From Nitrospirota bacterium (GTDB lineage Bacteria > Nitrospirota > UBA9217): 64,000 nucleotides of DNA. Positions 23,704-38,926 of this stretch are shown piece by piece (within the stretch, counting starts at the first letter, position 1; each line of letters starts with the position of its first letter). The notes under the pieces were generated by a model that made no database searches, was not told the origin of the DNA, and saw only the letters and a list, made by a program, of their open reading frames with translations. The translations under genes and the position numbers were made by a program. Location: NCBI GenBank assembly GCA_963740085.1, contig CAVUCU010000003.1, forward strand, positions 107,680-171,679, written 5' to 3'.

Positions 23704-24567
23704 TCACCTCACTATCAGTATCGGACGGGCGGCATGGGCAATGATCCGTTCCGCAGTACTTCCCATGATCGCCTTGTTCATGCCGCTCCAACCGTGGGTC
23801 CCCATGACGATCAGATCGTTCTTGAACTTGTCGGCGAGTTCAACGATCTTGTCGCTCGCATGGCCTTCCTGAACCACTGCCTTGATCTGTACTCCGAGTC
23901 CGGCTGCGATCTTCTTTGCGCCTTCGAGTATTTTCTCAGCCTCCTGGAAAAGGCTTTTCGTGATGGACTCGGTCTTATAAAAATTCACCATCTCTTCATA
24001 GCGGGGGATTACATAGAGGACCGTGATCTCTCCACCATCGAGCTTGGACAGTTCGCAGGCACGGTCCAGCGCCTTTTTGCTGGACTCGGAGCCATCAAAG
24101 GGGACCAGCAGGGAGCTGTATATCCCGGTGCATCTGGTGCATTCCCTGGTCACCACCAGCACATCGCAGGGTGCGTTCATGATGACCTGTGACGCCACAC
24201 TGCCCATCAGCAGCCGTTTGAGCCCCTTCCGTCCGTAGGTGCCGAGGGCGATAAGGTCGGCCTTCTTCCCGTTGGCCATGTCAACGATAACCTCGGGCGG
24301 CTCGCCCTCGCAGATCATCGACTCAACATTGCCGTTCAGACCGAACTCATCGTGAATGTTATTTTTTGCGGCGAGACAGACGGATGTGCCGAACTCGAAC
24401 CGTTTCTCCATCTGTGAGGGCAGAATGGAGAACTCTTCCTGGTCGAAATAGACCGCATGGATAAGGAAGAGCTTCCCCCCGTGCACCTTTACCCATCGGG
24501 AGGCCTCTTTCAGCGCGGCCTTGCTCGATAGCGACTCGTCATAGCCTACAACAATGGAGTTATACAT
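23704..24567 (-). CDS. Tandem universal stress protein (two Usp domains)
   Basis: 287 aa. It contains two copies of the G-x2-G-x9-G(S/T) region: LIALGTYGRKGLKRLLMGSVASQVIMNAPCDVLVV and LIVMGTHGWSGMNKAIMGSTAERIIAHAARPILIV. Confidence 0.85.
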   Translation of the reverse strand: MYNSIVVGYDESLSSKAALKEASRWVKVHGGKLFLIHAVYFDQEEFSILPSQMEKRFEFGTSVCLAAKNNIHDEFGLNGNVESMICEGEPPEVIVDMANGKKADLIALGTYGRKGLKRLLMGSVASQVIMNAPCDVLVVTRECTRCTGIYSSLLVPFDGSESSKKALDRACELSKLDGGEITVLYVIPRYEEMVNFYKTESITKSLFQEAEKILEGAKKIAAGLGVQIKAVVQEGHASDKIVELADKFKNDLIVMGTHGWSGMNKAIMGSTAERIIAHAARPILIVR

Positions 24568-25403
24568 CAGTGAGAACCTCCACCTTTCTTGAACACCATG
24601 CTTACGCCTACGCCTGCGCCAAGCGCGACGCCGATGGCAAGAAATCCGTAGATCGCCGGGCTGTTCTTCGCCATGGTTGATAACGTCTTGACCATGCCGA
24701 CCTGCTCTACGTTGACCTTTGACTGGGCCTGTTCTACGACTTTATTGTCCTTCACGGCATAGACCGAGACAAGGTAATCGCCGGGCTGGGCCTGGTAGGG
24801 CCAATCGGTGAGGATATAGTATTCCTGCTTTCCGTCCGAGTTCATGGTTGTCTCGATTTTTCCGGACGACGTCGTATACACTTTGGACTCTTCCTTGAAC
24901 TTGACGAACTCATCGAACCATTTTGCCTTCTCTTCCTCGTTCGCGACCGGGGTTATATCCACATGTTTTGCAAGCGCGGGATAGCCGATTACATATTTTT
25001 CCCTTTCTTCGCGGCTCAGGATGTCTTCAACCTTCTTCGTGCTGAAGACCTCGTAGAAGTTGGGGGTCTGATCGAACTTCAGTTTGCCCACGTTCATCCA
25101 CAACACCCCCGCGACCTTGCCCTTCTGCTTCAATACCTGATGCCCTTCGGGAGAGGCTATCTTGATGACCAGGTCCACGCCCGGCTCCGATATGCCCCGC
25201 ACGCTCACCGTGCTGCCATGATAGAAGAAGTCGATGGTAATGTGGTCATGGTTTGCCCTGGCCGTAAGCATGGCCGACGCCGGTTTTGCACCGGCAAGCT
25301 GGAACAGGGAAAACACGAGCATGAGAAGTAACGTGCCCAGGAATCTTGTACTGCCGATGAATCTGGCAAAGTGCATTATGAATGAATGGAGTTGAATATG
25401 CAT
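24567..25403 (-). CDS. Membrane-anchored partner protein of the TauE permease (TIGR02186/Alph_Pro_TM-like, unverified)
   Basis: 278 aa with an N-terminal signal/TM segment, a beta-rich middle and a C-terminal TM (AIYGFLAIGVALGAGVGVSMVF). It lies directly downstream of a DUF81 permease, as I recall for TIGR02186 proteins. An alternative start is 25376. Confidence 0.4.
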   Translation of the reverse strand: MHIQLHSFIMHFARFIGSTRFLGTLLLMLVFSLFQLAGAKPASAMLTARANHDHITIDFFYHGSTVSVRGISEPGVDLVIKIASPEGHQVLKQKGKVAGVLWMNVGKLKFDQTPNFYEVFSTKKVEDILSREEREKYVIGYPALAKHVDITPVANEEEKAKWFDEFVKFKEESKVYTTSSGKIETTMNSDGKQEYYILTDWPYQAQPGDYLVSVYAVKDNKVVEQAQSKVNVEQVGMVKTLSTMAKNSPAIYGFLAIGVALGAGVGVSMVFKKGGGSH

Positions 25404-25404
25404 T

Positions 25405-26331
25405 TTAATGTCCTCCTACTTGAGAGAGAAGTAACGACGGGGTCAATGTAACCTCGAAGACGATCTTGACCGTCACCACGAGCACGATCACCGCGAGGAG
25501 GATCTTGAGCTGTTCGGCCTTGAGCTTCCTGCCGAACACGGTGCCGATCTGCGCCCCTACGGTCGAACCCAGGAGCAGGAGCACGGCGAGCAGGAAGTCC
25601 ACGCTGTGATTGGTGTATGCCTGGAGGAACGTGACCTCGATGCACGTGAACAGGATCTGGAACAGGCTCGTACCGACCACCACGTGCATCGGCATCCTGA
25701 GCAGGTACACCATGATCGGCACCATCAGGAACCCGCCGCCCACGCCCATGATCGCGGCAAGAATGCCGACAAACCCGCCCAGCACGATCGGAACGAACAC
25801 GGAATGAGTGATGCCCGACTTCTCGAAGTGTGTCTGAAGCGGCAGGGATTTCAGGAACCTGCCCATCGCGGATTCTTTTTCTTTCTTCACTTCTTCTCCG
25901 GCCACATCCTTTTTCTTCCTCATGCTCTGGAGGCTCTCGATGAACATGTAGACGCCGACGATGCCGAGCATAAGGATATAGGTAATCTTGATCACGAAAT
26001 CGGCATTGCCCATGGCATGGAGGAGTTTGATGACCTGAACGCCGACGATGCCGCCGATAAATCCGCCGACAAGCAGATACAGCCCCATCTTAAAGTCCAC
26101 GTTCCCCACCCTCCAGTGCGCATAGGTGCCGGACGTGGATGCCGCCACGATCTGGTTGGAATCAGTTGCCGCGGCAACCGTCGATGGTATGCCGAACATG
26201 ATGAGAAGCGGCGTCAAGAGAAATCCGCCGCCTACGCCGAAGAGACCGGAAAGCAGTCCCACGGCCAGCCCGAGCCCAACGGGGATCAGGATATTGATGC
26301 TGGTCAATGCTACAGGTAGATACAGGTACAT
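25405..26331 (-). CDS. TauE/SafE (DUF81) family anion permease
   Basis: 308 aa with two halves of Gly-rich TM helices (GLFGVGGGFLLTPLL and IMGVGGGFLMVPIMVY) separated by a charged loop. Confidence 0.8.
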   Translation of the reverse strand: MYLYLPVALTSINILIPVGLGLAVGLLSGLFGVGGGFLLTPLLIMFGIPSTVAAATDSNQIVAASTSGTYAHWRVGNVDFKMGLYLLVGGFIGGIVGVQVIKLLHAMGNADFVIKITYILMLGIVGVYMFIESLQSMRKKKDVAGEEVKKEKESAMGRFLKSLPLQTHFEKSGITHSVFVPIVLGGFVGILAAIMGVGGGFLMVPIMVYLLRMPMHVVVGTSLFQILFTCIEVTFLQAYTNHSVDFLLAVLLLLGSTVGAQIGTVFGRKLKAEQLKILLAVIVLVVTVKIVFEVTLTPSLLLSQVGGH

Positions 26332-26376
26332 CTCGATAGCTCCTTTTCTTTATTTAAAATTTTTACTGCAAAAACC

Positions 26377-26443
26377 CGCAGAGCCTCTGATTCGGCATGG
26401 AGCAGAGCGCATGAACTCCTGTGCTTTGCTCTCTGCCCTCTGC
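26377..26443. repeat. Intergenic imperfect hairpin of gcagag words (R5)
   Basis: Inner stem gagcagagcgca / tgtgctttgctc (10/12) with loop tgaactcc. The outer arms are gcagagc...ctctgc. Confidence 0.45.
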
Positions 26444-26466
26444 TTTCTACTCTTTGTCCTTCGCTC

Positions 26467-26958
26467 CTACGCCACCGCGCAGGCCTGCCTGGTCATGGTC
26501 ACGATCGGCCGCGACGCTGTCCGCACAAGCCGGCTCAGATCCTTTGAAGTGACGTTCCCTGCCTCGGTAATTGCGGGGCTCAACACGACCTTATCGATAC
26601 CCGCATGTTCCTTGATAAATTTTCTTATGCCTGATATCGCATCCAGACTTGTGGCATGGACATTCGCCTGAATTCCTTCGTTAAGGCATTTTTTCACAAC
26701 AGTGTCTACCTCTTTTTCGTAGATGCCCTTCACGACCTGGGAAGTCATGATCTGTTGCGCCGTATCGTGCTCGCCGGCCTCGGCAAAGCTCACGGCTGTC
26801 ATCATGTTTCCCAACTTATCCATGAGTGAGCTTTGCTTCTGGACGAAAAGGAGCGTGATGTCCTCATACATAGCCTTTGCAAGCTCGATAGCGTACGAAA
26901 CCCCTTCTTCCAAATTTTCATCCCGGAAGGTGACGAACAACAACTGCCTCTTTCCCAT
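26467..26958 (-). CDS. Usp-like (adenine-nucleotide-alpha-hydrolase fold) protein carrying an FAEAGE motif insert
   Basis: 163 aa. QLLFVTFRDENLEEGVSYAIELA...DKVVLSP...RPIVTM is Usp-like. The internal motif is TAVSFAEAGEHDTAQQIM. An SD aggagg lies upstream. Confidence 0.5.
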   Translation of the reverse strand: MGKRQLLFVTFRDENLEEGVSYAIELAKAMYEDITLLFVQKQSSLMDKLGNMMTAVSFAEAGEHDTAQQIMTSQVVKGIYEKEVDTVVKKCLNEGIQANVHATSLDAISGIRKFIKEHAGIDKVVLSPAITEAGNVTSKDLSRLVRTASRPIVTMTRQACAVA

Positions 26959-27001: not shown

Positions 27002-27019
27002 TTGCAGTATGAGTGCCAA
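27002..27019 (-). promoter_or_regulatory. Sigma54 (-24/-12) promoter candidate
   Basis: The minus strand reads TTGGCAC-tcata-CTGCA-atag. GG/GC spacing is canonical, and the -12 element is 45 nt upstream of ATG 26958. Confidence 0.6.
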
Positions 27020-27328: not shown

Positions 27329-28669
<1,341 letters not shown>

Positions 28670-28699
28670 AATAGGTCCTTTTTTAACTGCTCAGGTTGG

Positions 28700-28789
28700 C
28701 CGCAAAAGAACACAAAGAGCTCAAAGAAAAAGCCAGAAAGCATGAAGTTCAGTCTTATTTCTCCCTGCGTTCCTTGCGTTCTTTCGCGG
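28700..28789. repeat. Intergenic imperfect hairpin (R6)
   Basis: ccgcaaaagaacacaaagagctc (28700-28722) faces ctgcgttccttgcgttctttcgcgg (28765-28789). The right arm is the perfect reverse complement of 30470-30494. Confidence 0.65.
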
Positions 28790-28809
28790 CAAAAAGTGAA
28801 TTCGACTCG

Positions 28810-30397
28810 TTACTCTAAGTTATCCTGCTGCACCGGCAAAACGATCACGAACCTCGTGCCCTTGCCTGGCTCGCTTTCGGCTGCGATATCGCCGCCGTGC
28901 TTCTTGATGATATTATACACAATAGCCAGCCCAAGACCCGTACCCTTGTCCTTGGTCGTAAAGAACGGCTCAAAGATCTTGTCCAGTGACTCCCGGGGGA
29001 TCCCCCTCCCCGTATCAGCGATCCTGACGATGACCGCTTCATCCGCCTTCTTGAGCGAAACAGAAATGTCTCCCCTCCCCTGCATGGCATCCACGGCATT
29101 CGCAAACAGGTTTCCGAAAACCTGCTCCATCTGCCCTCCGTCCGCGGACACGACTATCTGCAGCGGGTCCGGATCAAATGAAAAACGGATGTTTCCGAGA
29201 TCACGGGTGCTCCCAAGGTGCCGATAGGAGTCAGTGATCAACCCCACCAGATCCACGTCCTTGAACTGCGGATCCCTTCCCCGCGCAAACTCGAGGAGCT
29301 CTCCCACGATCCGCTTTACCCGTTCCGTCTGACCGAGGATGTCACTCACCGACTCTTTGATCTCGGTCGAACAATGCTCACCCCCTTCCTTCGCGAGCAC
29401 CTGTGCCGAAAGATAGATATTGTTCAGGGGATTGTTCAACTCATGGGCCACGCCGGCGGCGAGGGTACCGATGGCGGCGAGCTTTTTGGTCTGCATCAGC
29501 TCTTTGTTCTTCCGTTCGATCTCCGACCGCCCGTTCAGCAAGCTGGTCCCCCATGGTATTGAACCGGTCTATCAGCACCCCCACCTCGTCATGGGCATTT
29601 CCCCCGGAAGAAGGGATGGATAGGTGCGGGTAGGAACCTTTACCCGTCTTTTCCACCACATTGATCAGAAGCATCAGCCTTTTTACAACGTTCGTACTGA
29701 TGAAGAAGAGTGTCCCGATTCCCACGGCAAAGAAGAGCGGGAAGAATATCAGGATCGCGATCTGCGAAACCCGGATCACGGTCTCCACTTTTTCCCGCGC
29801 CACCCTGTCGAGGTCCTTGGAAATGACCATGATATCCTCGCCGGTCTTTCTAAGTGCGGTGATCTCCGTGCCGAGTTCGCGAAGGCCCTGTACGAGCGGA
29901 TGGCCAGGGGGCAGGAGAAATACTTTTTCGAGAAAATCCGCGGATTGGAAGGGCTGCTCGATAAATGTGGATTCAACAAGCGAGAGATATTTTGCAGTTC
30001 CTTTGAATGAAGCTTTTGTCCGGTCGAAGAGCCCCGTCACCAAGGTCGCATCTCTCCGCATCACGCTGAAGCGGCGTTCATAGTCTTTAATACTGCTCCG
30101 CAAAGACAGTTTATCAGTCTGGTCGATATCCGGGTTCTGAGCAAGGAGGGTTTTCAGTTCAGCTAGATATGCAGTGACCGCCGCGGATTCTTCGTCAGCC
30201 TTTTGAGGACTGTAGAGAAAGAAATTCTTTTCGTGCCTCCGAAGCTGGAGCGACTTGCGGCTGATCGTGTCCGTGATCTCGAGATACCGGATTTCCTTTT
30301 TGATCTCGACAAAGCTCAGATATTCAAATGCGGCGAGGATGGCGATGATAGCCGCGCTGATAAGAAAGCTGAGCGCTATTTTTTTCTTCAGCGACAT
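28810..30397 (-). CDS. Sensor histidine kinase (2 TM, HAMP, HisKA, HATPase_c) interrupted by one frameshift
   Basis: Track ORFs 29441..30397 (TM-sensor-HAMP ...IDRFNTMG) and 28810..29541 ([37 protein letters not shown]..., N, G1 and G2 boxes) are consecutive parts of one kinase. The frames overlap around the C5 run at 29548-29552. Confidence 0.75.
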
Positions 30398-30621: not shown

Positions 30622-31476
30622 TTACGCCTTGACCACAAGCACCGGGCAGGGCGCATAGCCGATGACCCTTTCCGCCACACTTCCCATAAGAAGCCTGCGG
30701 AGGCCGGTCCTGCCGTGCGAGCCGATGACGATCATGTCGGCGGTCTGTTCCTTCGCAAGATTGGTGATCGCCTCGTCGGCCTCGGCCTCTCCAACAAAGG
30801 TTTCAGACCGAACCCCTGCCGCTTCGGCCTGTTTTTTCACCTCAGCAACGTAACCCTTTGCTTTTTTGACCAGGTCGTCCACAGCCTGAGGCGCCTCGGC
30901 ATAAAATTCGGAAGGAACGTTCACAACCGAGATGACCCTGAGTTCCCCTCCATAGGACTTCGCGAAGGAGATCGCCCGTTCCATCGCTTTGACGCTGTAC
31001 TTCGATCCGTCGGTCGCAAGCACGATCTTTTTCCATCCAACAACAGTCCCGTTAGGGACGACGAGCACATCGCGCTGGGTGTGGCCGATGACCCTCGCCG
31101 TGACGCTGCCGATGAGCGCACGCTCAATGCGGTGGAGCCCGCTCCTCCCCATAACGATCACGTCGCAGTTCTCAGCGTCGGCCAGATCCACAATGCGTTC
31201 GTGAACCTCGCCTTCTTCGCAGACCGTCTTGACGAGCATCCGCTCGGTCTTTGCGATCTTTTCAACTTCCGCGAGGGCCTCGTCGCACGGTTTCCGGAGC
31301 GCTGCCCTGATGTCTTTGATGCCAAGGAGCTCGATCTCGCCGTCATACGAGGGGACCACGGAGGTGACCGTTATCCAGCACTTTTCCTCGTTGGCCAGCT
31401 TGAACGCCTGATGGAGCGCGTTCCTGCCGGATTCAGAATTGTCAACAGCAACGAGTATCTTCCTATATCTTCCCAT
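30622..31476 (-). CDS. Tandem universal stress protein (two Usp domains)
   Basis: 284 aa. The two Usp motifs are VIVMGRSGLHRIERALIGSVTARVIGHTQRDVLVV and MIVIGSHGRTGLRRLLMGSVAERVIGYAPCPVLVV. Confidence 0.85.
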   Translation of the reverse strand: MGRYRKILVAVDNSESGRNALHQAFKLANEEKCWITVTSVVPSYDGEIELLGIKDIRAALRKPCDEALAEVEKIAKTERMLVKTVCEEGEVHERIVDLADAENCDVIVMGRSGLHRIERALIGSVTARVIGHTQRDVLVVPNGTVVGWKKIVLATDGSKYSVKAMERAISFAKSYGGELRVISVVNVPSEFYAEAPQAVDDLVKKAKGYVAEVKKQAEAAGVRSETFVGEAEADEAITNLAKEQTADMIVIGSHGRTGLRRLLMGSVAERVIGYAPCPVLVVKA

Positions 31477-32554
31477 GCTCCAGGGCTCCCGATGCCTGCT
31501 GCAGTTTCTCTGCCTGACGACCTTGCCAGATCGCTTTCAGAATAATGAATGCGCCGATAAAGAGCGCTGCGATCATTATACCAAAACTCGAGGTTTTTAG
31601 GAAGCTCGCGGTACCTTCGTTCAAGGTGCTGATCAGACCGAGCTTTGAAAGATATACCGGGATCATGAGCCCCCTGCTGACCAGGACGATGACCATGATC
31701 GTGCCCATGACGAACTTGATCATGAAAGGTTTCACATAGGTGGTGCCCATGGCGCCAAGCTGAATGCCAAAGAGCGAGCCTCCCAGGATGAGCATGGCAA
31801 GCCGGATATCAACCAGACCGTGCATGGCGAACTTGAACGATCCGCCCATGCCCATCACAAAGGCAACCACAAGCTCTGTGGCCGAGGCCATCAGGCTCGG
31901 GACCCCGAGGGCGTAGATCATGGCGGGGACGCCGATGAATCCGCCAACCGCGATCGTCGCCGCCAGCAATCCGGTCGCGATTCCGAGGGGGATGGTGAAG
32001 AGGACCGAGATCCGGGCATCCAAGCTCTTGAAATACATCATAGTATAGGGGATATTGATCGACTGCACCCACTTCGCGAGCTTGCCGACCGTTTCCTTCT
32101 CATCGGTCTTGCCCGAGCGGTAGGTCTTGATGGCATCGCGCAGCACGAAACCGCCGACAACCGCGAGGATCACGACAAATGCGGCGCTGACATACAGGTT
32201 GGAACCGGCATCGCCGAAGGCCTTCTTGATCGATTCCTGTATATGCGCGCCGTACAAGACGCCCGCCTCAGCCGAAATACCGAAGATCAGGCCGAGTTTC
32301 ACGTCCACCTGGCCATACTTGAACCGCTTGATGGACCCGACAAGCGCCTTGGGAAACTTATGCGCCATGTTGCTCGCCACCGCGACAAGACCGGGTACGC
32401 CAAGGCTCATCATGGCCGGCGTAAGAACGAAAGCGCCTCCGGAACCGATAAATCCGCTCACGAGACCACCGACAAAACCCACCCCGAGCAGATAAATCAC
32501 CGTAAACAGGTCAAGGTGAATGAACTGCGCCGCATTTCCTATAAGATCAGGCAT
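31463..32554 (-). CDS. TauE/SafE (DUF81)-like permease
   Basis: 363 aa polytopic protein. GFIGSGGAFVLTPAMM and TIAVGGFIGVPAMIYAL are DUF81-type Gly-rich helices. It overlaps the Usp gene by 14 nt. Confidence 0.7.
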   Translation of the reverse strand: MPDLIGNAAQFIHLDLFTVIYLLGVGFVGGLVSGFIGSGGAFVLTPAMMSLGVPGLVAVASNMAHKFPKALVGSIKRFKYGQVDVKLGLIFGISAEAGVLYGAHIQESIKKAFGDAGSNLYVSAAFVVILAVVGGFVLRDAIKTYRSGKTDEKETVGKLAKWVQSINIPYTMMYFKSLDARISVLFTIPLGIATGLLAATIAVGGFIGVPAMIYALGVPSLMASATELVVAFVMGMGGSFKFAMHGLVDIRLAMLILGGSLFGIQLGAMGTTYVKPFMIKFVMGTIMVIVLVSRGLMIPVYLSKLGLISTLNEGTASFLKTSSFGIMIAALFIGAFIILKAIWQGRQAEKLQQASGALEHGKI

Positions 32555-32555
32555 C

Positions 32556-32807
32556 TTACTTTACCTCCTTTTTCTTTTTGGCCGCTTCAATTCCGAGAAC
32601 CGTCCAGAAATGTCCGGTAAAAGAACCGTGTACTAGTGAAAAAAGAAGTGCGGTACCGATCGGTAAAAATGCGTACCAGCCCCCGCGGGTGAATGCGCTG
32701 CTGACCAGGTCCTGATTCGAGAACAGGGCGGTAAACAGCAGGATCGAAAAAAAACCTGAGATGAGCAATTTTCCTACCGGCTTCTTCCTTGCGATACTTT
32801 GTGCCAT
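32556..32807 (-). CDS. Small two-TM membrane protein, partner of the permease
   Basis: 83 aa with two hydrophobic helices (LLISGFFSILLFTALF and AFLPIGTALLFSLV). An SD aaggagg lies upstream, and its stop is 1 nt before the permease ATG. Confidence 0.55.
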   Translation of the reverse strand: MAQSIARKKPVGKLLISGFFSILLFTALFSNQDLVSSAFTRGGWYAFLPIGTALLFSLVHGSFTGHFWTVLGIEAAKKKKEVK

Positions 32808-32866
32808 GATAATTCCTCCTTGCGTAGAATAGATTATTTTTTTGCGGTGTTATGCGGTGTGATGTT

Positions 32867-32894
32867 GACTCCTGACTCCTGACTCCTGACTCCT
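32867..32894. repeat. Tandem heptamer (gactcct)x4, read as AGGAGUC x4 on the transcribed minus strand
   Basis: Four perfect copies at 32867-32894, immediately 3' of the stop of 32894..33397. It is preceded by tgcggtgt x2 (32843-32862). Confidence 0.8.
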
Positions 32895-33397
32895 CACGCC
32901 TTCGCCCCGTCCATAACCACGACCAGCGGGCATTTCAGCTTCTGCCAGAGCTCCGAAAGCGTCTTGTCCCGCTTGTTGCAGTCCATGTCAAGACTTTGCG
33001 GAGACTCAATAACCGCGAAGAGAATCTCCTTTTCACTGTTCGTATAGTCGATAATCTGCTGTTTGAGACATCCGGTTCGCGGGATCATGCGGTAGGCGAT
33101 GCCTTCCGCCTCGAGTTCTGACCTGAAGTTAGAAAACAAAGGGTCGATGGTGAACTCGTCGTTGCCCGCGCCGGTAACATAGAGAATATCGAGGTCAGCA
33201 CCGATCCTCTTGGAAGTATTCAATGCATACTTCAGGGTCCCGGCGTCGATCCGGCCCTCTTTGAGCGCAAGCAGGACCCTTCGCCCTTCCTTCATGATCG
33301 ATCTGGCCGTCGCAGCCTGACCTTCCTCCGCGAACGTTGCCGCCGCCAGCGCATTCTCGACGTTCTTCATTATTTTTTTTAACTTTGTCGCTTCCAT
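32894..33397 (-). CDS. Usp-like protein with N-terminal FAEEGQ motif peptide
   Basis: 167 aa. The N-terminus KKIMKNVENALAAATFAEEGQAATARSIMKE is followed by a Usp-like core (RVLLAL...DILYVTG...ILFAVIESP...CPLVVV). Confidence 0.5.
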   Translation of the reverse strand: MEATKLKKIMKNVENALAAATFAEEGQAATARSIMKEGRRVLLALKEGRIDAGTLKYALNTSKRIGADLDILYVTGAGNDEFTIDPLFSNFRSELEAEGIAYRMIPRTGCLKQQIIDYTNSEKEILFAVIESPQSLDMDCNKRDKTLSELWQKLKCPLVVVMDGAKA

Positions 33398-33429
33398 AGC
33401 AAACCTCGTGGGATCAGTCTCCCCGGTTC

Positions 33430-33600
33430 TTAGTCGGCGCGCAGTTCTTTTCTCGCGGCTGGTCTCTTGTAATCGTACTGAGACGGCCGGTCGTTCTTCC
33501 TGTCTTCATTTATGATCTGGCGCGCGGTCTCAAATTCCCCTGCTTCCGCGAATGAAGCGGCGACCATCACTGTCTCGAATTTCTTCATTAAGGTCTTCAT
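33430..33600 (-). CDS. Small protein (56 aa) with FAEAGE motif; not in the ORF track (below its size cutoff)
   Basis: My translation is MKTLMKKFETVMVAASFAEAGEFETARQIINEDRKNDRPSQYDYKRPAARKELRAD. A strong SD (ggaaaaGGAGGGaacaacg ATG) precedes it. It is paralogous to the first ~35 aa of the next gene, and a sigma54-type promoter lies 48 nt upstream. Confidence 0.55.
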   Translation of the reverse strand: MKTLMKKFETVMVAASFAEAGEFETARQIINEDRKNDRPSQYDYKRPAARKELRAD

Positions 33601-33646: not shown

Positions 33647-33663
33647 TTTCAACTCCTGTGCCA
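33647..33663 (-). promoter_or_regulatory. Sigma54 (-24/-12) promoter candidate
   Basis: The minus strand reads TTGGCAC-aggag-TTGAA-atag. It has the same architecture and the same distance to its ATG as the 27002-27019 site, but -12 GC is replaced by GA. Confidence 0.5.
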
Positions 33664-33808
33664 AAACAGAACAGCGTGCTAACACCTTGACAATATGCTC
33701 TTATTGAAAGGCGGCGTCCGATCAGTCCTCATCCACGACTGTTTTATTATGCAATGGCCTTTGGTTGAATACTCACACCATGTTGATTTTTATGATTAAT
33801 TTTGTCTG

Positions 33809-33837
33809 TTGCATCAAAACTAAAAACGTTGTAAAAT
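33809..33837 (+). promoter_or_regulatory. Sigma70-type promoter candidate for the REC-Lon operon
   Basis: TTGCAT (33809-33814), a 17-nt spacer, TAAAAT (33832-33837), and the ATG at 33867. Confidence 0.4.
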
Positions 33838-33866
33838 GCAACCATCTCAAAATCTCAAGGTGTTGC

Positions 33867-35876
33867 ATGAAATTCTTTAATAAATCGGAAGACAATCATC
33901 AACTATTCGTTATTGAAGAACTTCGCCGGAAGATCTCAGAGGCTGTGCTGCCACAACCGGTACAGAAGATCGCTGAACAGGAACTCGATCTGCTGAACAG
34001 GATCAGTTCCGCGTCGGCCGAGCACACGATCGGCATTACTTACATCGACTACCTCGCTTCCCTTCCCTGGAACAAAAAGACCGAGGACAACCTTGACATG
34101 GTCCGTGCTGAGCGGATCCTGAACGAGAACCACTTCGGGTTGAACAAGATCAAGGAAAGGATCATGGAGCACCTTGCCATCAAGGTGCTTATCATGAACA
34201 GGAAGGCACGGGTCCTGATCGTCGACGACGAGGAGATCGCAAGAAAAAATCTGGCGCATATCCTGATGAAGGAAAATTACGATGTAGTCGCTGTTGCTGA
34301 CGCCGAAACGGCAATCCGGGAGTTGGAGTCTTCTGAAATTGATGTAGTGCTTACCGACCTGCGCATGGGCAAGATCGACGGCATGGACCTGCTGGACCGG
34401 GTCCGGATAAAACACGCCGACACGAAGGTCGTTATGGTAACGGGCTATGCCACGGTCCCTTCGGCAATCGAGGCCATGCGGAAGGGCGCATTCCATTACC
34501 TGGCCAAGCCCTACAAACTCGATGAGGTGCGCGAGACCGTAAAGCGGGCAATGGAGCAGCGGGCGCTCAAACCGAGCACCAAGGGCACCGTGCTCTGTTT
34601 CACCGGCCCTCCGGGAACCGGCAAGACCTCGCTCGGGAAATCCATCGCCCGCGCCCTTGGGAAAAAATTTACGCGGATCTCCCTCGGCGGTCTCAAGGAT
34701 GAGGCCGACATTCGCGGACACCGGCGCACCTATGTGGGCGCCAAGCCCGGCAGAGTGATCGAAGAGCTTCGCCGGGTGGAATCGGCCAATCCCGTCATCA
34801 TGCTTGACGAGCTCGACAAGATCGGTCATGACTTCAAGGGAGATCCCGCTTCGGCCCTGCTTGAAGTGCTCGACCCGGAGCAGAACCGCTCATTCACGGA
34901 CCACTACCTCGATGTTCCCTTCGACCTTTCGAGCGTCATGTTCATCCTGACCGCGAACGTCCTCGACTCCATCCCCGCCCCGCTCCGCGACCGCATGGAG
35001 GTCATCAAGTTTACCGGCTACACGCGGGAAGAGAAGACCCATATTGCTCGGCAATTCCTCTGCGTCAAACAAATTCGGGAAAAAGGCCTCTCCCAAAACC
35101 AGGTCGTCTTCACGGATGAGGCCGTGGACAGGATCATCCAGGAATACACGCGCGAGGCCGGCATCCGGAACCTCGAACGAAGGATCGCCACGATCTGCCG
35201 GAAGATCGCCCGGGAATCGCTCCAAACCGCGGGCAGCGCGGAGATCGTGACCATAACCCCCGGGTCAGTCCAACGCTACCTCGGAAGGAGAAAGTTCCAG
35301 TTCGAAGTGATCGAAGAGCAGGACCGCGTCGGCGTGGCCACCGGACTCGTGCGCACCGAGACCGGCGGCGAGATCATCTTCGTCGAAGCCGCCCAGATGA
35401 AGGGAAACAAGGAACTCATCATCACCGGATCCCTCGGTGACGTGATGCGCGAATCCGCCCAGGCCGCGCTCAGCTATATCCGGAGCAACGCCGGGTCCTT
35501 CGGCATTGCTGAAGACTTTTTTGAGCGCCAGGACATCCACATCCACGTACCGTCCGGCGCGATCCAGAAGGATGGCCCTTCTGCCGGCGTCACCATTCTC
35601 GCGGCGCTCCTGTCGCTGTTGACCAAACGGCCTGCGCGCAGGGACGTGGCCATGACCGGAGAGATAACGCTGACCGGACGGATCCTCCCCGTCAGCGGCA
35701 TCCGGGACAAGGTACTCGCGGCCAGGCGTGCCAGGGTCAAGATCGTGCTCGTGCCCGCGCGAAACCGGGTCGAGGTGGAAGAACTGTCCGAAGATATACG
35801 AAAGGACGTCGACATCCGGCTTGTCGACACCGTCGCTGAAGTGGTGGATTCTGTGCTTGCCGGTCATCAGAGATGA
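33867..35876 (+). CDS. Lon-family ATP-dependent protease lacking the LON N-domain and carrying an inserted response-regulator receiver domain
   Basis: The start is set at ATG 33867 (MKFFNKSED). The Lon helical linker ([19 protein letters not shown]...[18 protein letters not shown]) is followed by a full REC domain ([33 protein letters not shown]). The AAA+ module has GPPGTGKTS and VIMLDELDK. The protease dyad is KDGPSAGV...GIRDKVLAA. Confidence 0.8.
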
Positions 35877-37400
35877 ATTACACTCCGAGCATCAGACAGA
35901 AGATAACACTCGGCTATTACGCCATCGTCGCCATGATCATCGGATTGTCCGTGTTCACCTTTCTGGAACTGCGGTACATCGAGAAGAAGATCATGTTCGG
36001 CGAGGCCATCTCGGAATTTTTCGATGCCACACTTGAGATCCGGCGCTTCGAAAAAAATTATTTCCTCTACGAGCAGCATTCGGACTACGACGAGAATATC
36101 CAATACGTGTCCCGGGCCCAGGACCTCATCGACAGCAACATCGCCGGGTTCACCTCGATAGCATCTGCTGAGCAGATGGCAAACGTACAGGAAAGTCTTA
36201 AAAAGTATAAGAACTTGATGGACCAATACGCGAAGATCGGCAGAGCAATACACGGTACGAAAGAACCTGTTTGCCGCAGGGATCCGGACCACCGGGAAAA
36301 ACATAATCACCATAGCAGAGAATATCTCCAAGACCGAGCGGAAGAACCTTCAGCAGATCCTGAGCAGTTCCCGAAACATCCTTCTCGTCTCGATCGTGCT
36401 TCTCTCTCTGGCGGCTATCGCCATAGGCCAGATACTTTCGCGAATGGTGGTCAAACCGCTGAAATCGCTTGAGAAGAGCATGGGGGTTATAGCCGGGGGT
36501 ACGTTCGAGCGAATTGCCATAAAATCCAAAGACCGTGAGATCGTCTCGCTCATGAACGCGTTCAACAAAATGTTGAAAGAGCTCGAACTGCATGAGCGGC
36601 ATCTGATCCAGTCCGAGAAGCTCGCGTCCCTCGGCACCCTTCTCTCCGGCGTTGCGCATGAATTGAATAATCCCCTGTCGAACATCTCATCGTCGAACCA
36701 GATACTGATGGAGGAATTCAAGGAAGCCCTCGAGAAGCAGTCTTCGCTGCCCTGGCCGCTGGACCCCGGCTTCACCAAGGAACTGCTCTCCCAGATCAAC
36801 GATCAGACGGACCGGGCCCGGAATATCGTCCGTTCACTTCTCGACTTCTCGCGGGACAGGGCGTTCAAAAAAGAATCGCTGTCGCTCAAGAACCTTTTTA
36901 ACGAGACCATCCAGTTCGTGAAGGGACAGGTGCCGACGAACATAGTAATCTCCCTTTCCATACCCGAGGACATCGCGATCTTTGCGGACAAACAGCGGAT
37001 GCAGCAGGCATTTTTAAATTTGATCAAGAACGCCATTGATGCGATCTCATCCGAGGAAGGGACGGTCGCCATCACGGCCGTGAAGCGCCGGGCGATGGAC
37101 GACATTGAAAATGAAAAGACCGGAATCTACAACTATCTCAAGTACCGCGGAAAGTGCACGCTGGACCAGGACACGGTCGACATCGAAATACGGGACAGCG
37201 GATCCGGGATACCGCTCGATATCATTTCGAAGATCTTCGACCCTTTTTTCACGACCAAGGATGTCGGCAAAGGCTCCGGGCTCGGCCTGTTCATTGTCCA
37301 CGAGATCATCAAGGAGCATGACGGCTGCATTGCGGTGGACAGCCATCCTGACAAAGGCACAAGGTTCCTGATACGGCTGCCGATCGGGCAAGAAGCCTGA
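35873..37400 (+). CDS. Sensor histidine kinase (2 TM, HAMP, HisKA, HATPase_c) interrupted by one frameshift
   Basis: Its ATG overlaps the Lon stop (ATGA). Track ORFs 35873..36472 (TM1 plus sensor, plausible up to ...LMDQYAKIG) and 36396..37400 (TM2, [29 protein letters not shown]) are joined by the frame open from 36219 (AEQYTVRKNLFAAGIRTTGKNIITIAENISKTERKNL...). Confidence 0.75.
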
Positions 37401-37564: not shown

Positions 37565-38926
37565 ATGCAAGATCAGGCAAGACTACTCATCATCGATGAC
37601 GAACGGATCGCGCTCAGAAACCTCGAGCATGTTATGAAGAAGGAAGGCTACGACGTGACAAGCACGCAGAGCGGGCCGAATGCGCTCAAGCTGCTCGATG
37701 AGCAGCAGTTCGACGTGGTGCTCACGGACCTGCGCATGGAAAAGGTGGACGGCATGCAGATCCTGAAAAGGACCCGCGAGTTCTACCCGGACACGGAAGT
37801 GATCATGATCACCGGTTATGCCACGCTCGACTCGGCAGTCGAGACCATGAAGCACGGCGCGTTCTACTACATCGCCAAGCCGTTCAGGCTTGAGGAAGTG
37901 CGCAAGGTCGTACAAGAGGCGGTGAACAAGGTCCGGCTTAAAACCGAGAACCGCCATCTCCGGGAACAGCTTGAGACCTACCAGGGCAAGGTCAAGATCG
38001 TCACCCAGGACCCGACCATGCTGAAACTGCTCGACACCGCGCACCAGATCGCGCCCACGGACTGCAACGTGCTCATCACGGGCGAGAGCGGGACGGGTAA
38101 GGAACTCTTTGCGCGGTTCATCCACCTGAACAGCGGCCGCGCCGGAGGGCCGTTCTTCGCCGTCAACTGCGGCGCCTTTAACGAGGAGCTTTTATCGAAC
38201 GAGCTCTTCGGCCACGAAAAAGGCGCCTTCACCGGCGCGAACAACGCGAAAAAAGGGATCATCGAAATGGCCTCGGCAGGCACGCTCTTTCTCGATGAGA
38301 TCACCGAGATGCCGCCATCGATGCAGGTGAAACTCCTTCGTGTCATTCAGGAAAAGGAGGTCCTGCGCGTCGGCGGCACCGAATCGCTCAAAGTGGACGT
38401 GCGGTTCATTGCCGCGACGAACCGGGATATCCATGATTCCATGAAGACCGGCGCCTTCCGCCAGGACCTCTACTTCAGGCTGAACGTGATCTCGATCCGG
38501 ATCCCGCCTCTCGCAGAACGCAAAGACGACATCCCCCTGCTCTGCTACTATTTTTTAAAGAAATACGATGTGCTGATGAAAAAAACCGTGGCCGAGATCA
38601 GCGAGGAAGTGCTCGCACTGCTCATGAACTATGACTTCCCCGGGAATGTGCGGGAACTTGAGAACATCATCGAACGCGGAGTGGCGCTCACGAATGGCGG
38701 CGCTATCGAGACCGGCCATCTGCCCGAGGACCTGCGGGAACTCAGCATCAAGACCTTCCGGAAGAAGGAGGGCAGGATACCGTCGCTCGATGAGCAGGAA
38801 CAGACATATATCCAGTGGGTGCTCGGCGAGGTCGGCGGAAACAGGACCCTTGCGGCCCAGATACTCGGCATCGACCGGGTCTCGCTCTGGAGAAAGCTGA
38901 AGAAGTACGGGCTGGACGCGGAATGA
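37565..38926 (+). CDS. Sigma54-dependent response regulator (NtrC family)
   Basis: The start is set at [26 protein letters not shown] marks the REC domain. The AAA+ module has GESGTGKE and GHEKGAFTGA. The C-terminal HTH is AAQILGIDRVSLWRKLKKYG. Confidence 0.9.
   Translation: MQDQARLLIIDDERIALRNLEHVMKKEGYDVTSTQSGPNALKLLDEQQFDVVLTDLRMEKVDGMQILKRTREFYPDTEVIMITGYATLDSAVETMKHGAFYYIAKPFRLEEVRKVVQEAVNKVRLKTENRHLREQLETYQGKVKIVTQDPTMLKLLDTAHQIAPTDCNVLITGESGTGKELFARFIHLNSGRAGGPFFAVNCGAFNEELLSNELFGHEKGAFTGANNAKKGIIEMASAGTLFLDEITEMPPSMQVKLLRVIQEKEVLRVGGTESLKVDVRFIAATNRDIHDSMKTGAFRQDLYFRLNVISIRIPPLAERKDDIPLLCYYFLKKYDVLMKKTVAEISEEVLALLMNYDFPGNVRELENIIERGVALTNGGAIETGHLPEDLRELSIKTFRKKEGRIPSLDEQEQTYIQWVLGEVGGNRTLAAQILGIDRVSLWRKLKKYGLDAE

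Follow-up and report, generated by a model that had tools for sequence, protein, structure and literature searches.

The closest described system is the three-component system DVU3303–3305 of Desulfovibrio vulgaris Hildenborough (Rajeev et al. 2011, PMC3333781). It joins DVU3303, a response regulator "containing a lon protease", to a histidine kinase and a sigma-54 activator (EBP), and it controls a divergent Usp/transporter operon. Activation of the receiver–Lon protein (hereafter REC-Lon) by phosphorylation was already proposed for DVU3303, DVU3305 binds the intergenic region equivalent to the one described below, and the operons are stress-induced (PMC3333781). Genetic follow-up came in 2015 (Kazakov et al., PMC4641369) and in 2023 (Trotter et al., PMC10102598), the latter giving pairwise cofitness values above 0.9 for the three genes; this cofitness may be a polar effect, since DVU3303 is the first gene of its operon. 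DVU3303 carries the TIGR annotation 'ATP-dependent protease La, truncation', orthologues have been reported in Thermodesulfovibrio yellowstonii (Nitrospirota) and others, and the literature adds REC-Lon members from Desulfovibrio, Thioalkalivibrio, and Dechloromonas (PMC3333781, PMC4641369, PMC10102598). The architecture, the partners, and the phospho-switch hypothesis have been known since 2011; literature searches on REC-Lon, on LonA combined with a receiver, and on censuses of response regulators turned up neither a biochemical nor a structural study of REC-Lon. An earlier note on the present DNA had implied that the protein was novel, which was overstated in view of the family, partners, and phospho-activation idea published for DVU3303.

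The window (the whole 64-kb stretch of DNA analysed here, from an uncultured Nitrospirota clade) contains a module of the DVU3303–3305 type. Both systems combine a receiver and truncated Lon, a histidine kinase, a sigma-54 regulator, and a divergent Usp/anion-transporter operon, the operon of the window corresponding to DVU3302–3298 (PMC3333781). Gene linkage, operon, and promoter match, and binding by the activator is known for DVU3305 only. Orthology to DVU3303 is presumed from the published description, the TIGR name, the T. yellowstonii statement, and the identical gene context. Unlike DVU3303–3305, the Nitrospirota module has an extra kinase/activator pair and small proteins with a FAEAGE motif. 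New here are the exact insertion point of the receiver inside Lon, a position absent from the DVU3303 papers; an apparently shared kinase-facing surface; a conserved putative sigma-54 promoter and enhancer; and the linked FAEAGE-motif small proteins. The REC-Lon gene is composed as follows.

33867..35876, + strand: REC-Lon gene, intact ORF of 669 aa plus stop, with ATG 33867 in line with the starts of orthologues and with orthologues of 664–676 aa covering 100% of it
33867..34196, + strand: three-helix bundle of LonA with its linker and the first helix of the nucleotide-binding (NB) domain, residues 1–110 (phmmer to PDB, AF2)
34209..34562, + strand: inserted receiver (REC) domain, residues 115–232 (PF00072, E 1.6e-27)
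34224–34229 (D120/D121), 34356–34358 (D164), 34440–34442 (T192), 34497–34499 (Y211), 34506–34508 (K214): key codons of REC
34590..35282, + strand: AAA+ module after the insertion, residues 242–472 (Pfam AAA, Lon_lid)
35253..35858, + strand: S16 Lon protease domain, residues 463–664 (Pfam Lon_C, E 9e-81)
35580–35582 (S572, within QKDGPSAGV) and 35709–35711 (K615), + strand: codons of the Ser-Lys dyad

Translation of the ORF revealed zero internal stops. Pfam placed Response_reg at residues 116–225 (spanning profile positions 1–110 of 111), AAA at 243–382, Lon_lid at 405–454, and Lon_C at 463–664, with no match in REC-Lon for the LON substrate-binding N-domain PF02190 and no significant match for Sigma54_activat or HTH_8. 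The domain scan bears out the earlier reading of a Lon protease with a complete REC domain and without the LON N-domain, and the residues named in that reading are all in place, namely, D120/D121, D164 (VVLTDLRMG), T192 (VMVTGY), K214 (YLAKP), the Walker A lysine K253, S572, and K615. The AAA+ residues comprise Walker A K253, pore-loop Y289, Walker B D314/E315, sensor-1 N364, Arg finger R376, and sensor-2 R434, with EcLon K362, N473, R484, and R542 as the reference for assigning their roles (PMC6722904, from which the naming of Lon domains is also taken). Walker B, the sensor region, and the Ser-Lys dyad are intact, as had been claimed, and K253, S572, and K615 are all invariant. The family model TIGR00763 'endopeptidase La' matched with 735.7 bits (cutoff, 608) in two stretches with REC between them, and the E. 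coli-type model NF008053 remained below its cutoff (574 vs 891).

The boundaries of the insertion were located by phmmer searches against PDB, in which REC-Lon 13–113 aligned to Thermus Lon 248–348 and REC-Lon 16–108 to residues 10–102 of a B. subtilis Lon fragment (240–774). Because the LonA alignment starts at Thermus 248, REC-Lon begins with the three-helix bundle, just past the long coiled-coil helix, and not in the long-helix region as the earlier note had it; only the last three helices of the HI(CC) domain are retained. Moreover, REC-Lon 16–108 and 234–668 meet at a single residue of the B. subtilis chain, 102. Since the flanks abut there, residues 109–233 constitute a clean insertion of 125 residues into a single peptide bond, placed between the first NB-domain helix (H-[FY]-G-L...ERI.E.LA) and the Walker-A strand beta1. 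The earlier description of REC as lying ahead of the AAA+ module holds with respect to the Walker-A strand, but the receiver follows the first NB-domain helix and hence lies inside the NB domain. Canonical LonA proteins (E. coli, B. subtilis, Meiothermus, Thermus, and LONP1; 3m6a, 4ypl, 7p6u, 6u5z) have the three-helix bundle, AAA+, lid, and S16 Ser-Lys dyad in common with REC-Lon, with ~50–56% identity across 540 shared residues. In contrast, they possess ~245 N-terminal residues, forming the N domain and the long coiled-coil helix for substrate binding and hexamer organisation, which are missing from REC-Lon, and lack the receiver of 125 residues that in REC-Lon separates the first NB helix from beta1. 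REC-Lon is, by its sequence, a LonA derivative and not a canonical LonA.

Two AF2 monomer models were compared. The first, with homologues of at least 73% identity, was poor (pLDDT 71, pTM 0.35), and the second, to which the Desulfobulbus branch was added, was better (pLDDT 78.8, pTM 0.58). In both models, REC was assigned by DSSP as a complete (beta-alpha)5 unit of five strands alternating with five helices (pLDDT ~80–88), which, together with the Pfam match (E 1.6e-27), confirms the REC fold assumed in the earlier note. The second model has helices before REC at residues 8–25, 30–45, 51–65, 78–88, and 93–110. The top Foldseek matches of the REC-Lon model were LonA protomers, with target-normalised TM-scores up to 0.86, and neither phmmer against PDB nor Foldseek found the receiver-within-Lon arrangement among PDB entries. 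The REC-to-AAA linker has a pLDDT of only ~50 in the monomer, leaving the inter-domain geometry weak. The tethers are short: ~9 residues connect REC helix alpha5 to the AAA+ strand beta1/P-loop, and ~5 residues connect the first NB helix to REC beta1.

The REC-Lon architecture, with lengths of 664–682 aa, was found in more than 200 protein clusters (120 + 120 independent 90% clusters; NCBI, JGI, ENA, Logan), in 48 Nitrospirota species-level genomes by genome scan, and in the cultured Desulfobulbus propionicus DSM 2032, whose finished genome encodes an orthologue ~53% identical. The genome scan and a 50%-representative search, in which P0122 was the only protein with the same full-length architecture, had pointed to a Nitrospirota-only family; this was overturned by Desulfobulbaceae matches in a second protein search and by the members known from the literature, and the family is conserved in both Nitrospirota and Desulfobacterota. 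The long top matches of the representative search (889–1379 aa), checked as possible multi-REC Lons, proved to be Lons that lack a REC and contain two or three AAA+ modules in tandem. In the receiver, D120, D121, D164, T192, Y211, and K214 are invariant (82 and 94 homologues, as well as 27 locus-derived sequences), so that the acceptor Asp assigned in the earlier note is retained throughout. K253, Y289, D314/E315, N364, R376, R434, S572, and K615 are likewise invariant among 94 homologues from the two phyla with identities down to 51%. REC is conserved on par with the catalytic domains, the identity being 0.72–0.83 inside clades and 0.50 between them. REC-Lon is flanked by the following signalling genes.

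35873..37400, + strand: partner histidine kinase (TM sensor-HAMP-HisKA-HATPase_c, with Pfam matches in its C-terminal part), orthologues of which are single ORFs of 508–515 aa
37565..38926, + strand: partner sigma-54 activator (EBP), REC-Sigma54_activat-HTH_8 (Pfam)
27329..30397, − strand: second kinase/activator pair at the far end of the divergent operon, HK1 at 28810–30397 (frameshifted here) and EBP1 at 27329–28669

The ATG of the partner kinase overlaps the REC-Lon stop codon (ATGA), through which the kinase is translationally coupled to REC-Lon. In the window, a +1 insertion near 36245 interrupts the partner kinase ORF, and HK1 also carries a +1 frameshift, at about 29520; the signalling input may be broken in this genome, or the assembly may contain indel errors. 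Since such errors or decay occur here, the REC-Lon architecture itself might be an assembly or annotation artefact, that is, fused genes or a decaying pseudogene. Against this, its ORF is uninterrupted, the same architecture recurs in the independent 90% clusters, the 48 species-level genomes, and the finished genome of D. propionicus DSM 2032, and both insertion junctions are conserved among orthologues, with the host Lon sequence continuous across the insertion. Fusion of two genes, a possibility raised in the earlier note along with a search of other genomes for the same architecture, is refuted by these comparative data, and we regard an artefact of any such kind as next to impossible.

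An orthologue of the partner activator, usually accompanied by the kinase, lies within 6 kb of REC-Lon in either orientation at 33 of the 48 Nitrospirota loci, and about 10 of the 48 have no orthologue of kinase or activator inside 6 kb; in D. propionicus, both genes flank REC-Lon. The second kinase/activator pair belongs, by synteny, to the wider module, with an uncertain tie to REC-Lon. Within the window, the nearest relative of the Lon REC is the REC of the partner activator (tblastn, 49% over 130 aa vs ~29% for other RECs), and blastp of the trimmed domains gave 51% identity with the partner activator REC vs 36% with the EBP1 REC. The Lon and activator RECs of the two phyla are all 40–51% identical to one another, a pattern that does not single out a simple ancient duplication with two clean clades. 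At the kinase-facing positions of alpha1, picked in advance from the Spo0F/RR468 complexes, the mean identity between the Lon REC and the partner activator REC was 0.70, compared with 0.22 at other alpha1 positions (27 genomes). Six of the eight kinase-facing positions are identical between the two RECs of D. propionicus, and three of eight match between the EBP1 REC and the Lon REC by direct sequence reading. Position 126, also kinase-facing, shows a fixed difference, R in the Lon REC vs L in the activator REC. These results provide evidence that the Lon REC and the partner activator REC would present a common kinase-facing helix surface. Upstream of REC-Lon and in the opposite direction, the window contains the following features.

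30622..33600, − strand: divergent putative target operon (ORFs, Pfam TauE and Usp, synteny)
33430–33600, − strand: 56-aa FAEAGE-motif protein
32894–33397, − strand: 167-aa FAEEGQ-motif protein
32556–32807, − strand: 83-aa membrane protein
31463–32554, − strand: TauE/SafE anion exporter
30622–31476, − strand: tandem-Usp protein
33648..33663, − strand: sigma-54-type −24/−12 promoter TGGCACAGGAGTTGAA (pattern search), pointing away from REC-Lon into the 56-aa/167-aa/83-aa/TauE/Usp operon
33741..33842, no strand assigned: candidate enhancer, with GTTnTAnnATGCAAy twice (33741–33755 and 33828–33842) and a TGTTGCA half-site (33808–33814)

The candidate enhancer ends ~25 nt upstream of the REC-Lon ATG, and GTTnTAnnATGCAAy occurs nowhere else in the 64 kb, against an expectation of 0.28 matches for the whole. 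An intergenic alignment of 17 loci revealed conservation of both the promoter block and the repeated palindrome; a strict sigma-54 regular expression matched at 9 of the 48 loci, the alignment showing a conserved element with a variable −12 (TTGAA, TTGTA, TTGAT). By position alone, the enhancer also matches the DAP-chip peak of DVU3305, which lies between DVU3301 and DVU3303.

With the architecture, clean insertion, conservation, gene linkage, alpha1 surface, and promoter/enhancer conservation established, we propose, at a probability of about 60%, that REC-Lon serves a branched ('three-component') stress-signalling system as its second response regulator, in which phosphorylation gates proteolysis. 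Among readings of the sequence, the phospho-switch on Lon predicted in the earlier note is the most reasonable. The adjoining membrane histidine kinase would phosphorylate two receivers bearing the same recognition surface. The first, in the sigma-54 activator, would turn on the divergent operon, which encodes the small proteins, the TauE anion exporter, and Usp; the second would be the one inserted in the truncated LonA where the first NB-domain helix would otherwise lead into the Walker-A strand. Phosphorylation of D164 would shift the T192/Y211 switch and the alpha4-beta5-alpha5 face. Because alpha5 is tethered to strand beta1/P-loop by ~9 residues and REC beta1 to the first NB helix by ~5, this change in the receiver is proposed to alter nucleotide binding and/or hexamer closure, gating the ATP-dependent degradation of a few substrates. 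The pairing of phosphorylated receivers, as three dimers per hexamer, could make up for the N-domain trimer of dimers that REC-Lon lacks; in human Lon, the N domain assembles in this form, and truncating it upsets both structure and activity (PMC5025710). Phosphotransfer from the partner kinase, the allosteric effect with its direction, and the substrates are what we infer. The hypothesis is directly testable, since the D. vulgaris member is genetically tractable (transposon mutants, chlorate phenotype) and the Thermodesulfovibrio orthologues may suit structural work.

Branched two-component systems with sink receivers are known, and this precedent, together with the kinase-facing surface common to both receivers, would also fit a REC-Lon that acts as a phosphate sink or competitor shaping how phosphoryl groups pass from the kinase to the sigma-54 activator, with proteolysis constitutive or secondary; the R/L difference fixed at position 126 could make the two receivers differ in their transfer kinetics. 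A receiver alone would suffice for such a role, however, whereas the ATPase and protease residues and the pore-loop Tyr are strictly conserved in two phyla, from which we argue that proteolysis is under selection. Moreover, a sink mutant should hyper-activate the pathway, opposite to the kinase and activator mutants, but the D. vulgaris phenotypes are alike. We therefore consider a phosphate sink very unlikely.

The placement of the receiver resembles that in NtrC/NtrC1/DctD-type activators, where it lies directly N-terminal to the AAA+ P-loop strand and its phosphorylation controls ring assembly. In the NCBIfam and PDB searches, the Lon REC was most similar to NtrC-family receivers. REC-Lon differs from these activators in lacking the sigma-54 interaction domain, the GAFTGA loop, and an HTH, and in carrying the receiver as an internal insertion rather than an N-terminal fusion; direct sequence reading showed that the alpha5-to-AAA+ link of ~9 residues contrasts with the long coiled-coil linker of the neighbouring activator. 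REC-Lon may at most work like the NtrC family and is not a member of it.

A more specific form of the proposed gating would act in cis, with the phosphorylated receiver directly switching either nucleotide binding or ring closure in the N-domain-less Lon hexamer. REC dimers driven by phosphorylation, three to a hexamer, would here replace the missing trimer of dimers. One kinase would fire the sigma-54 and proteolytic arms together, and the FAEAGE-motif proteins would be dedicated substrates or adaptors. We hold this combination to be possible, if rather doubtful. If true, REC-Lon would be the first natural AAA+ protease with a motor gated in cis by two-component phosphorylation. Lon control is usually described in terms of substrate, degron, or adaptor binding; a receiver built into the Lon ATPase would represent a natural signal-gated unfoldase/protease and a blueprint for switchable proteases. 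For the same purpose, a LOV2 domain has recently been engineered into Lon, and the resulting mfLon-LOV2 demonstrates that insertion of a sensor domain in Lon can yield allosteric control (bioRxiv 10.64898/2026.06.17.732960). That switchable insertion is synthetic and at another position (534), whereas the insertion in REC-Lon is natural.

Receiver adaptors of AAA+ proteases are known in RssB and CpdR, both for ClpXP, and both were among the NCBIfam and PDB matches of the Lon REC. They resemble REC-Lon in that two-component phosphorylation is tied to regulated proteolysis, as proposed here for REC-Lon, but they are separate proteins acting in trans on ClpXP, whereas in REC-Lon the receiver is part of the Lon ATPase chain itself, as a natural, covalent insertion. 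With this precedent, and with the substrate-binding N domain of LonA absent, REC might have become a recognition module that docks a specific partner, phosphorylation tuning binding and not the motor. The partner could be the activator REC, the closest paralogue of the Lon REC, held in an alpha4-beta5-alpha5 heterodimer so that the activator is degraded and the response ended; it could also be the kinase or the FAEAGE-motif proteins. Tethers to the NB domain as short as these point to coupling rather than to a freely docking domain, however, and degradation of the activator predicts that loss of REC-Lon should oppose loss of the kinase or activator, whereas the D. vulgaris mutants are alike (cofitness >0.9, although polarity could mask a difference). 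Many positions on the alpha4 and beta5 surface (197, 198, 206, and 210) differ consistently between the RECs of Lon and activator, which is neutral on heterodimers. On balance, a recognition module appears unlikely, less so than a phosphate sink. It is favoured by the 56-aa FAEAGE-motif protein, which is encoded at 39 of the 48 REC-Lon loci vs 0 of the 32 canonical-Lon loci; at some loci, its gene lies immediately upstream of REC-Lon on the same strand.

The open reading frame at 33867-35876 (+) runs without interruption over 669 codons and encodes a truncated LonA with an inserted receiver (REC) domain (hereafter REC-Lon), in which a Pfam scan identified the following domains:

Residues 116-225, receiver (Response_reg; E = 1.6e-27)
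Residues 243-382, AAA
Residues 405-454, Lon_lid
Residues 463-664, Lon_C (E = 9e-81)

Against the NCBIfam model TIGR00763 (endopeptidase La), REC-Lon scored 735.7 bits (cutoff, 608) in two stretches with REC between them; the Pfam and NCBIfam E-values are far beyond chance. The scan agreed with the earlier note in showing REC, AAA, and Lon_C with no Pfam match to the LON substrate-binding N-domain, and the motifs quoted there were all found at the residues stated. The start of the protein, which the note had put at the long-helix region, falls instead at the three-helix bundle, immediately beyond the long coiled-coil helix (query 13-113 corresponding to Thermus Lon 248-348), so that about 245 LonA residues are missing from the N-terminus.

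An initial protein search gave 120 clusters at 73-100% identity, most of them labelled Nitrospirota; PF00072 accompanies the Lon domains in all of them, and nearly all full-length members have 664-676 aa. Recurrence in other genomes, which the earlier note had proposed to look for, was evident: when one genome per species was scanned, 48 Nitrospirota genomes had the full-length architecture, the remoter matches being ordinary Lons without the REC segment, and a search seeded with P0122, the only other full-length protein in the representative search (53% identical), gave a further 120 clusters, mostly from Desulfobulbaceae and including the cultured Desulfobulbus propionicus DSM 2032. Throughout 94 sequences with identity down to 51%, the REC residues D120, D121, D164, T192, Y211, and K214, the ATPase residues K253, Y289, D314/E315, N364, R376, and R434, and the protease residues S572 and K615 are invariant, and the conservation of REC matches that of the catalytic domains. 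Judged from these alignments, REC-Lon is real and under selection. As to the grounds on which the earlier note might have failed, a REC fold is present, its acceptor Asp is retained in orthologues, and a gene-fusion artefact is excluded by the intact frame and the recurrence across clusters, species genomes, and cultured D. propionicus. The representative search also contained Lon-family proteins of 889-1379 aa (P0121, P0124-P0129) with two or three tandem AAA+ and Lon_lid modules, then one Lon_C and no receiver, which may be true multi-ATPase Lons or mis-assemblies; they have no bearing on REC-Lon.

Among solved-structure sequences, the B. subtilis Lon fragment 240-774 was covered in two pieces, its residues 10-102 by query 16-108 and its residues 102-534 by query 234-668. 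Because the two pieces abut at residue 102, residues 109-233 amount to 125 residues inserted into one peptide bond of Lon, which keeps all its own residues there (junctions ...EHLAIKVL[IMNRKA-REC-MEQRA]...). In Rotanova et al. 2019 (PMC6722904), the nucleotide-binding (NB) domain begins with helix α12 of EcLon (331-341), where the HYGL...ILEYLAV segment ends; on this definition, REC interrupts the NB domain after its first helix and before strand β1, which leads to the P-loop. The earlier placement of REC ahead of the AAA+ module therefore holds for Walker A but not for the ATPase module as a whole. The tethers comprise about 5 residues from the NB helix to REC β1 and about 9 from REC α5 to AAA+ β1. 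The two ends of a receiver fold emerge next to each other, away from the phosphorylation site on the opposite face, which makes REC well suited to insertion. With short tethers on both sides, a shift of α4-β5-α5 upon phosphorylation would be expected to affect both the P-loop strand and the helix that opens the NB domain. Two-fold REC dimers on the hexamer would, moreover, have the same symmetry as the N domain of human Lon, a trimer of dimers whose truncation disturbs structure and activity (PMC5025710). Sensor-domain insertion into Lon is workable in principle, since inserted LOV2 can give an allosterically switched protease (bioRxiv 10.64898/2026.06.17.732960).

Structure predictions from alignments of 82 close homologues (mean pLDDT, 71; pTM, 0.35) and of 94 homologues from two phyla (78.8; 0.58) both contained a complete (βα)5 receiver. 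The best Foldseek matches were LonA protomers (target-normalised TM-score up to 0.86); sequence and Foldseek searches found no Lon with a receiver among PDB entries.

REC-Lon is flanked by the following features:

23704-24567 (-), tandem-Usp-like gene
25405-26331 (-), second TauE-like gene
30622-33600 (-), on the side of REC-Lon away from the kinase, divergent operon: 56-aa protein, 167-aa protein, 83-aa membrane protein, TauE/SafE exporter, tandem-Usp protein
33663..33648 (-), conserved sigma-54-type -24/-12 element in the REC-Lon intergenic region, TGGCACAGGAGTTGAA
35873-37400 (+), partner kinase (TM sensor-HAMP-HisKA-HATPase_c)
37565-38926, after the kinase, partner sigma-54 activator (REC-Sigma54_activat-HTH_8 by Pfam)

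The start codon of the kinase overlaps the stop codon of REC-Lon (AGATGA). Within 6 kb of REC-Lon, 33 of the 48 Nitrospirota loci have an activator orthologue, usually accompanied by the kinase and placed either downstream co-directional or upstream divergent; several of the other loci stop at a contig edge. In D. propionicus, Usp-TauE is divergent from REC-Lon, and kinase and activator are convergent. The intergenic region also holds two copies of GTTnTAnnATGCAAy, the sole matches in the window (0.28 expected), the last ending about 25 nt ahead of the REC-Lon ATG.

The REC of REC-Lon is 51% identical to that of the partner activator, as against 36% for the second activator in the window and about 29% for the window's other receivers (tblastn). 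Every receiver has conserved active-site loops, so that similarity there proves nothing. We compared α1 positions set beforehand (+1, +3, +4, +5, +7, +8, +10, and +11 after the DD pair) from the kinase contacts in the Spo0F-Spo0B and HK853-RR468 complexes. Over 27 genomes, the two receivers were identical at these positions in 100, 63, 81, 0, 96, 93, 96, and 30% of pairs, respectively (mean identity, 0.70), versus 0.22 at other α1 positions (0-48% of pairs). D. propionicus shows a like periodic pattern (6/8 identical), whereas direct reading of the second activator REC gave only 3/8 matches. This fits one kinase serving both receivers, and the relative transfer kinetics may depend on position 126, a fixed R/L difference. 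That REC-Lon is a pure phosphate sink is unlikely, as its whole proteolytic machinery is strictly conserved.

By published description and gene context, the module is the Nitrospirota version of DVU3303-3305, the REC-Lon/kinase/sigma-54 activator system of Desulfovibrio vulgaris Hildenborough, and its REC-Lon adds a Nitrospirota member to an already published kind. DVU3305 binds not only its own operon but also the DVU3302-3298 genes upstream, which encode membrane, hypothetical, and UspA-type proteins; expression of these genes goes up under high pH, upon heat shock, and in stationary phase, and orthologous systems that include the Lon regulator are known from other Desulfovibrio, Thermodesulfovibrio yellowstonii, Thioalkalivibrio, and Dechloromonas (Rajeev et al. 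2011, PMC3333781). DVU3303 carries the TIGR annotation 'ATP-dependent protease La, truncation'. The earlier note knew of no characterised example; we found no biochemical or structural study of REC-Lon in the literature, but the system itself had been described by Rajeev et al. Its regulon is filed under general stress response (Kazakov et al. 2015, PMC4641369). DVU3303-3305 are each detrimental in chlorate, with pairwise cofitness >0.9, and the target anion transporter DVU3299 is required there (Trotter et al. 2023, PMC10102598). REC could alternatively be a docking module for the activator's receiver or the FAEAGE-motif proteins described below; this cofitness argues against REC-Lon opposing the pathway, although polarity from DVU3303, which leads its operon, may account for it. 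The phospho-switch, proposed in print before, is a reasonable prediction from the sequences, and the system lends itself well to studying control of an AAA+ protease by two-component signalling. The DVU3305 DAP-chip list (PMC3333781 supplement) includes a peak adjoining DVU1336 (clpX), about 239 nt upstream of the next gene, which hints that DVU3305 perhaps also touches a housekeeping protease locus.

Three small proteins without a Pfam match share the motif MKxLxKKxExxMxAxxFAE[AE]GExxTARxI, N-terminal in the first two and internal in the third:

33430-33600 (-), 56-aa protein
32894-33397 (-), 167-aa protein
26467-26958 (-), 163-aa protein

A homologue of the 56-aa protein was found at 39 of the 48 Nitrospirota REC-Lon loci (directly upstream on the same strand in L020, L038, and L041) versus 0 of 32 canonical-Lon loci, and none in D. 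propionicus; the protein could serve as substrate, adaptor, or regulator. At 27003-27018 (-), another sigma-54-like -24/-12 site (TGGCACTCATACTGCA) precedes the 163-aa gene (26958..26467) by about 45 nt, and this gene may belong to the same or a neighbouring sigma-54 regulon.

Usp-type and TauE-type genes crowd the surroundings (23704-26958 and 30622-31476 (-)), suggesting a larger stress and anion-export island. All module genes are intact except the two kinase genes, each split by a +1 nt insertion relative to orthologues: the partner kinase near 36245 (orthologues, single proteins of 508-515 aa) and the second kinase (28810-30397 (-)) near 29520 (523-525 aa). These are either assembly indels or true inactivation of both sensors in the source genome. 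Loci L083 (DATIZR010000061.1, 126992-147022) and L084 (Ga0265292_1000125, 743-20749) apparently belong to one 154,144-bp contig with two full modules of about 13 kb (activator-kinase pair/Usp-TauE-83-167-56/REC-Lon-kinase-activator), about 110 kb apart, whose REC-Lon proteins share 91% and 76% identity with that of the window; the whole module seems duplicated there.
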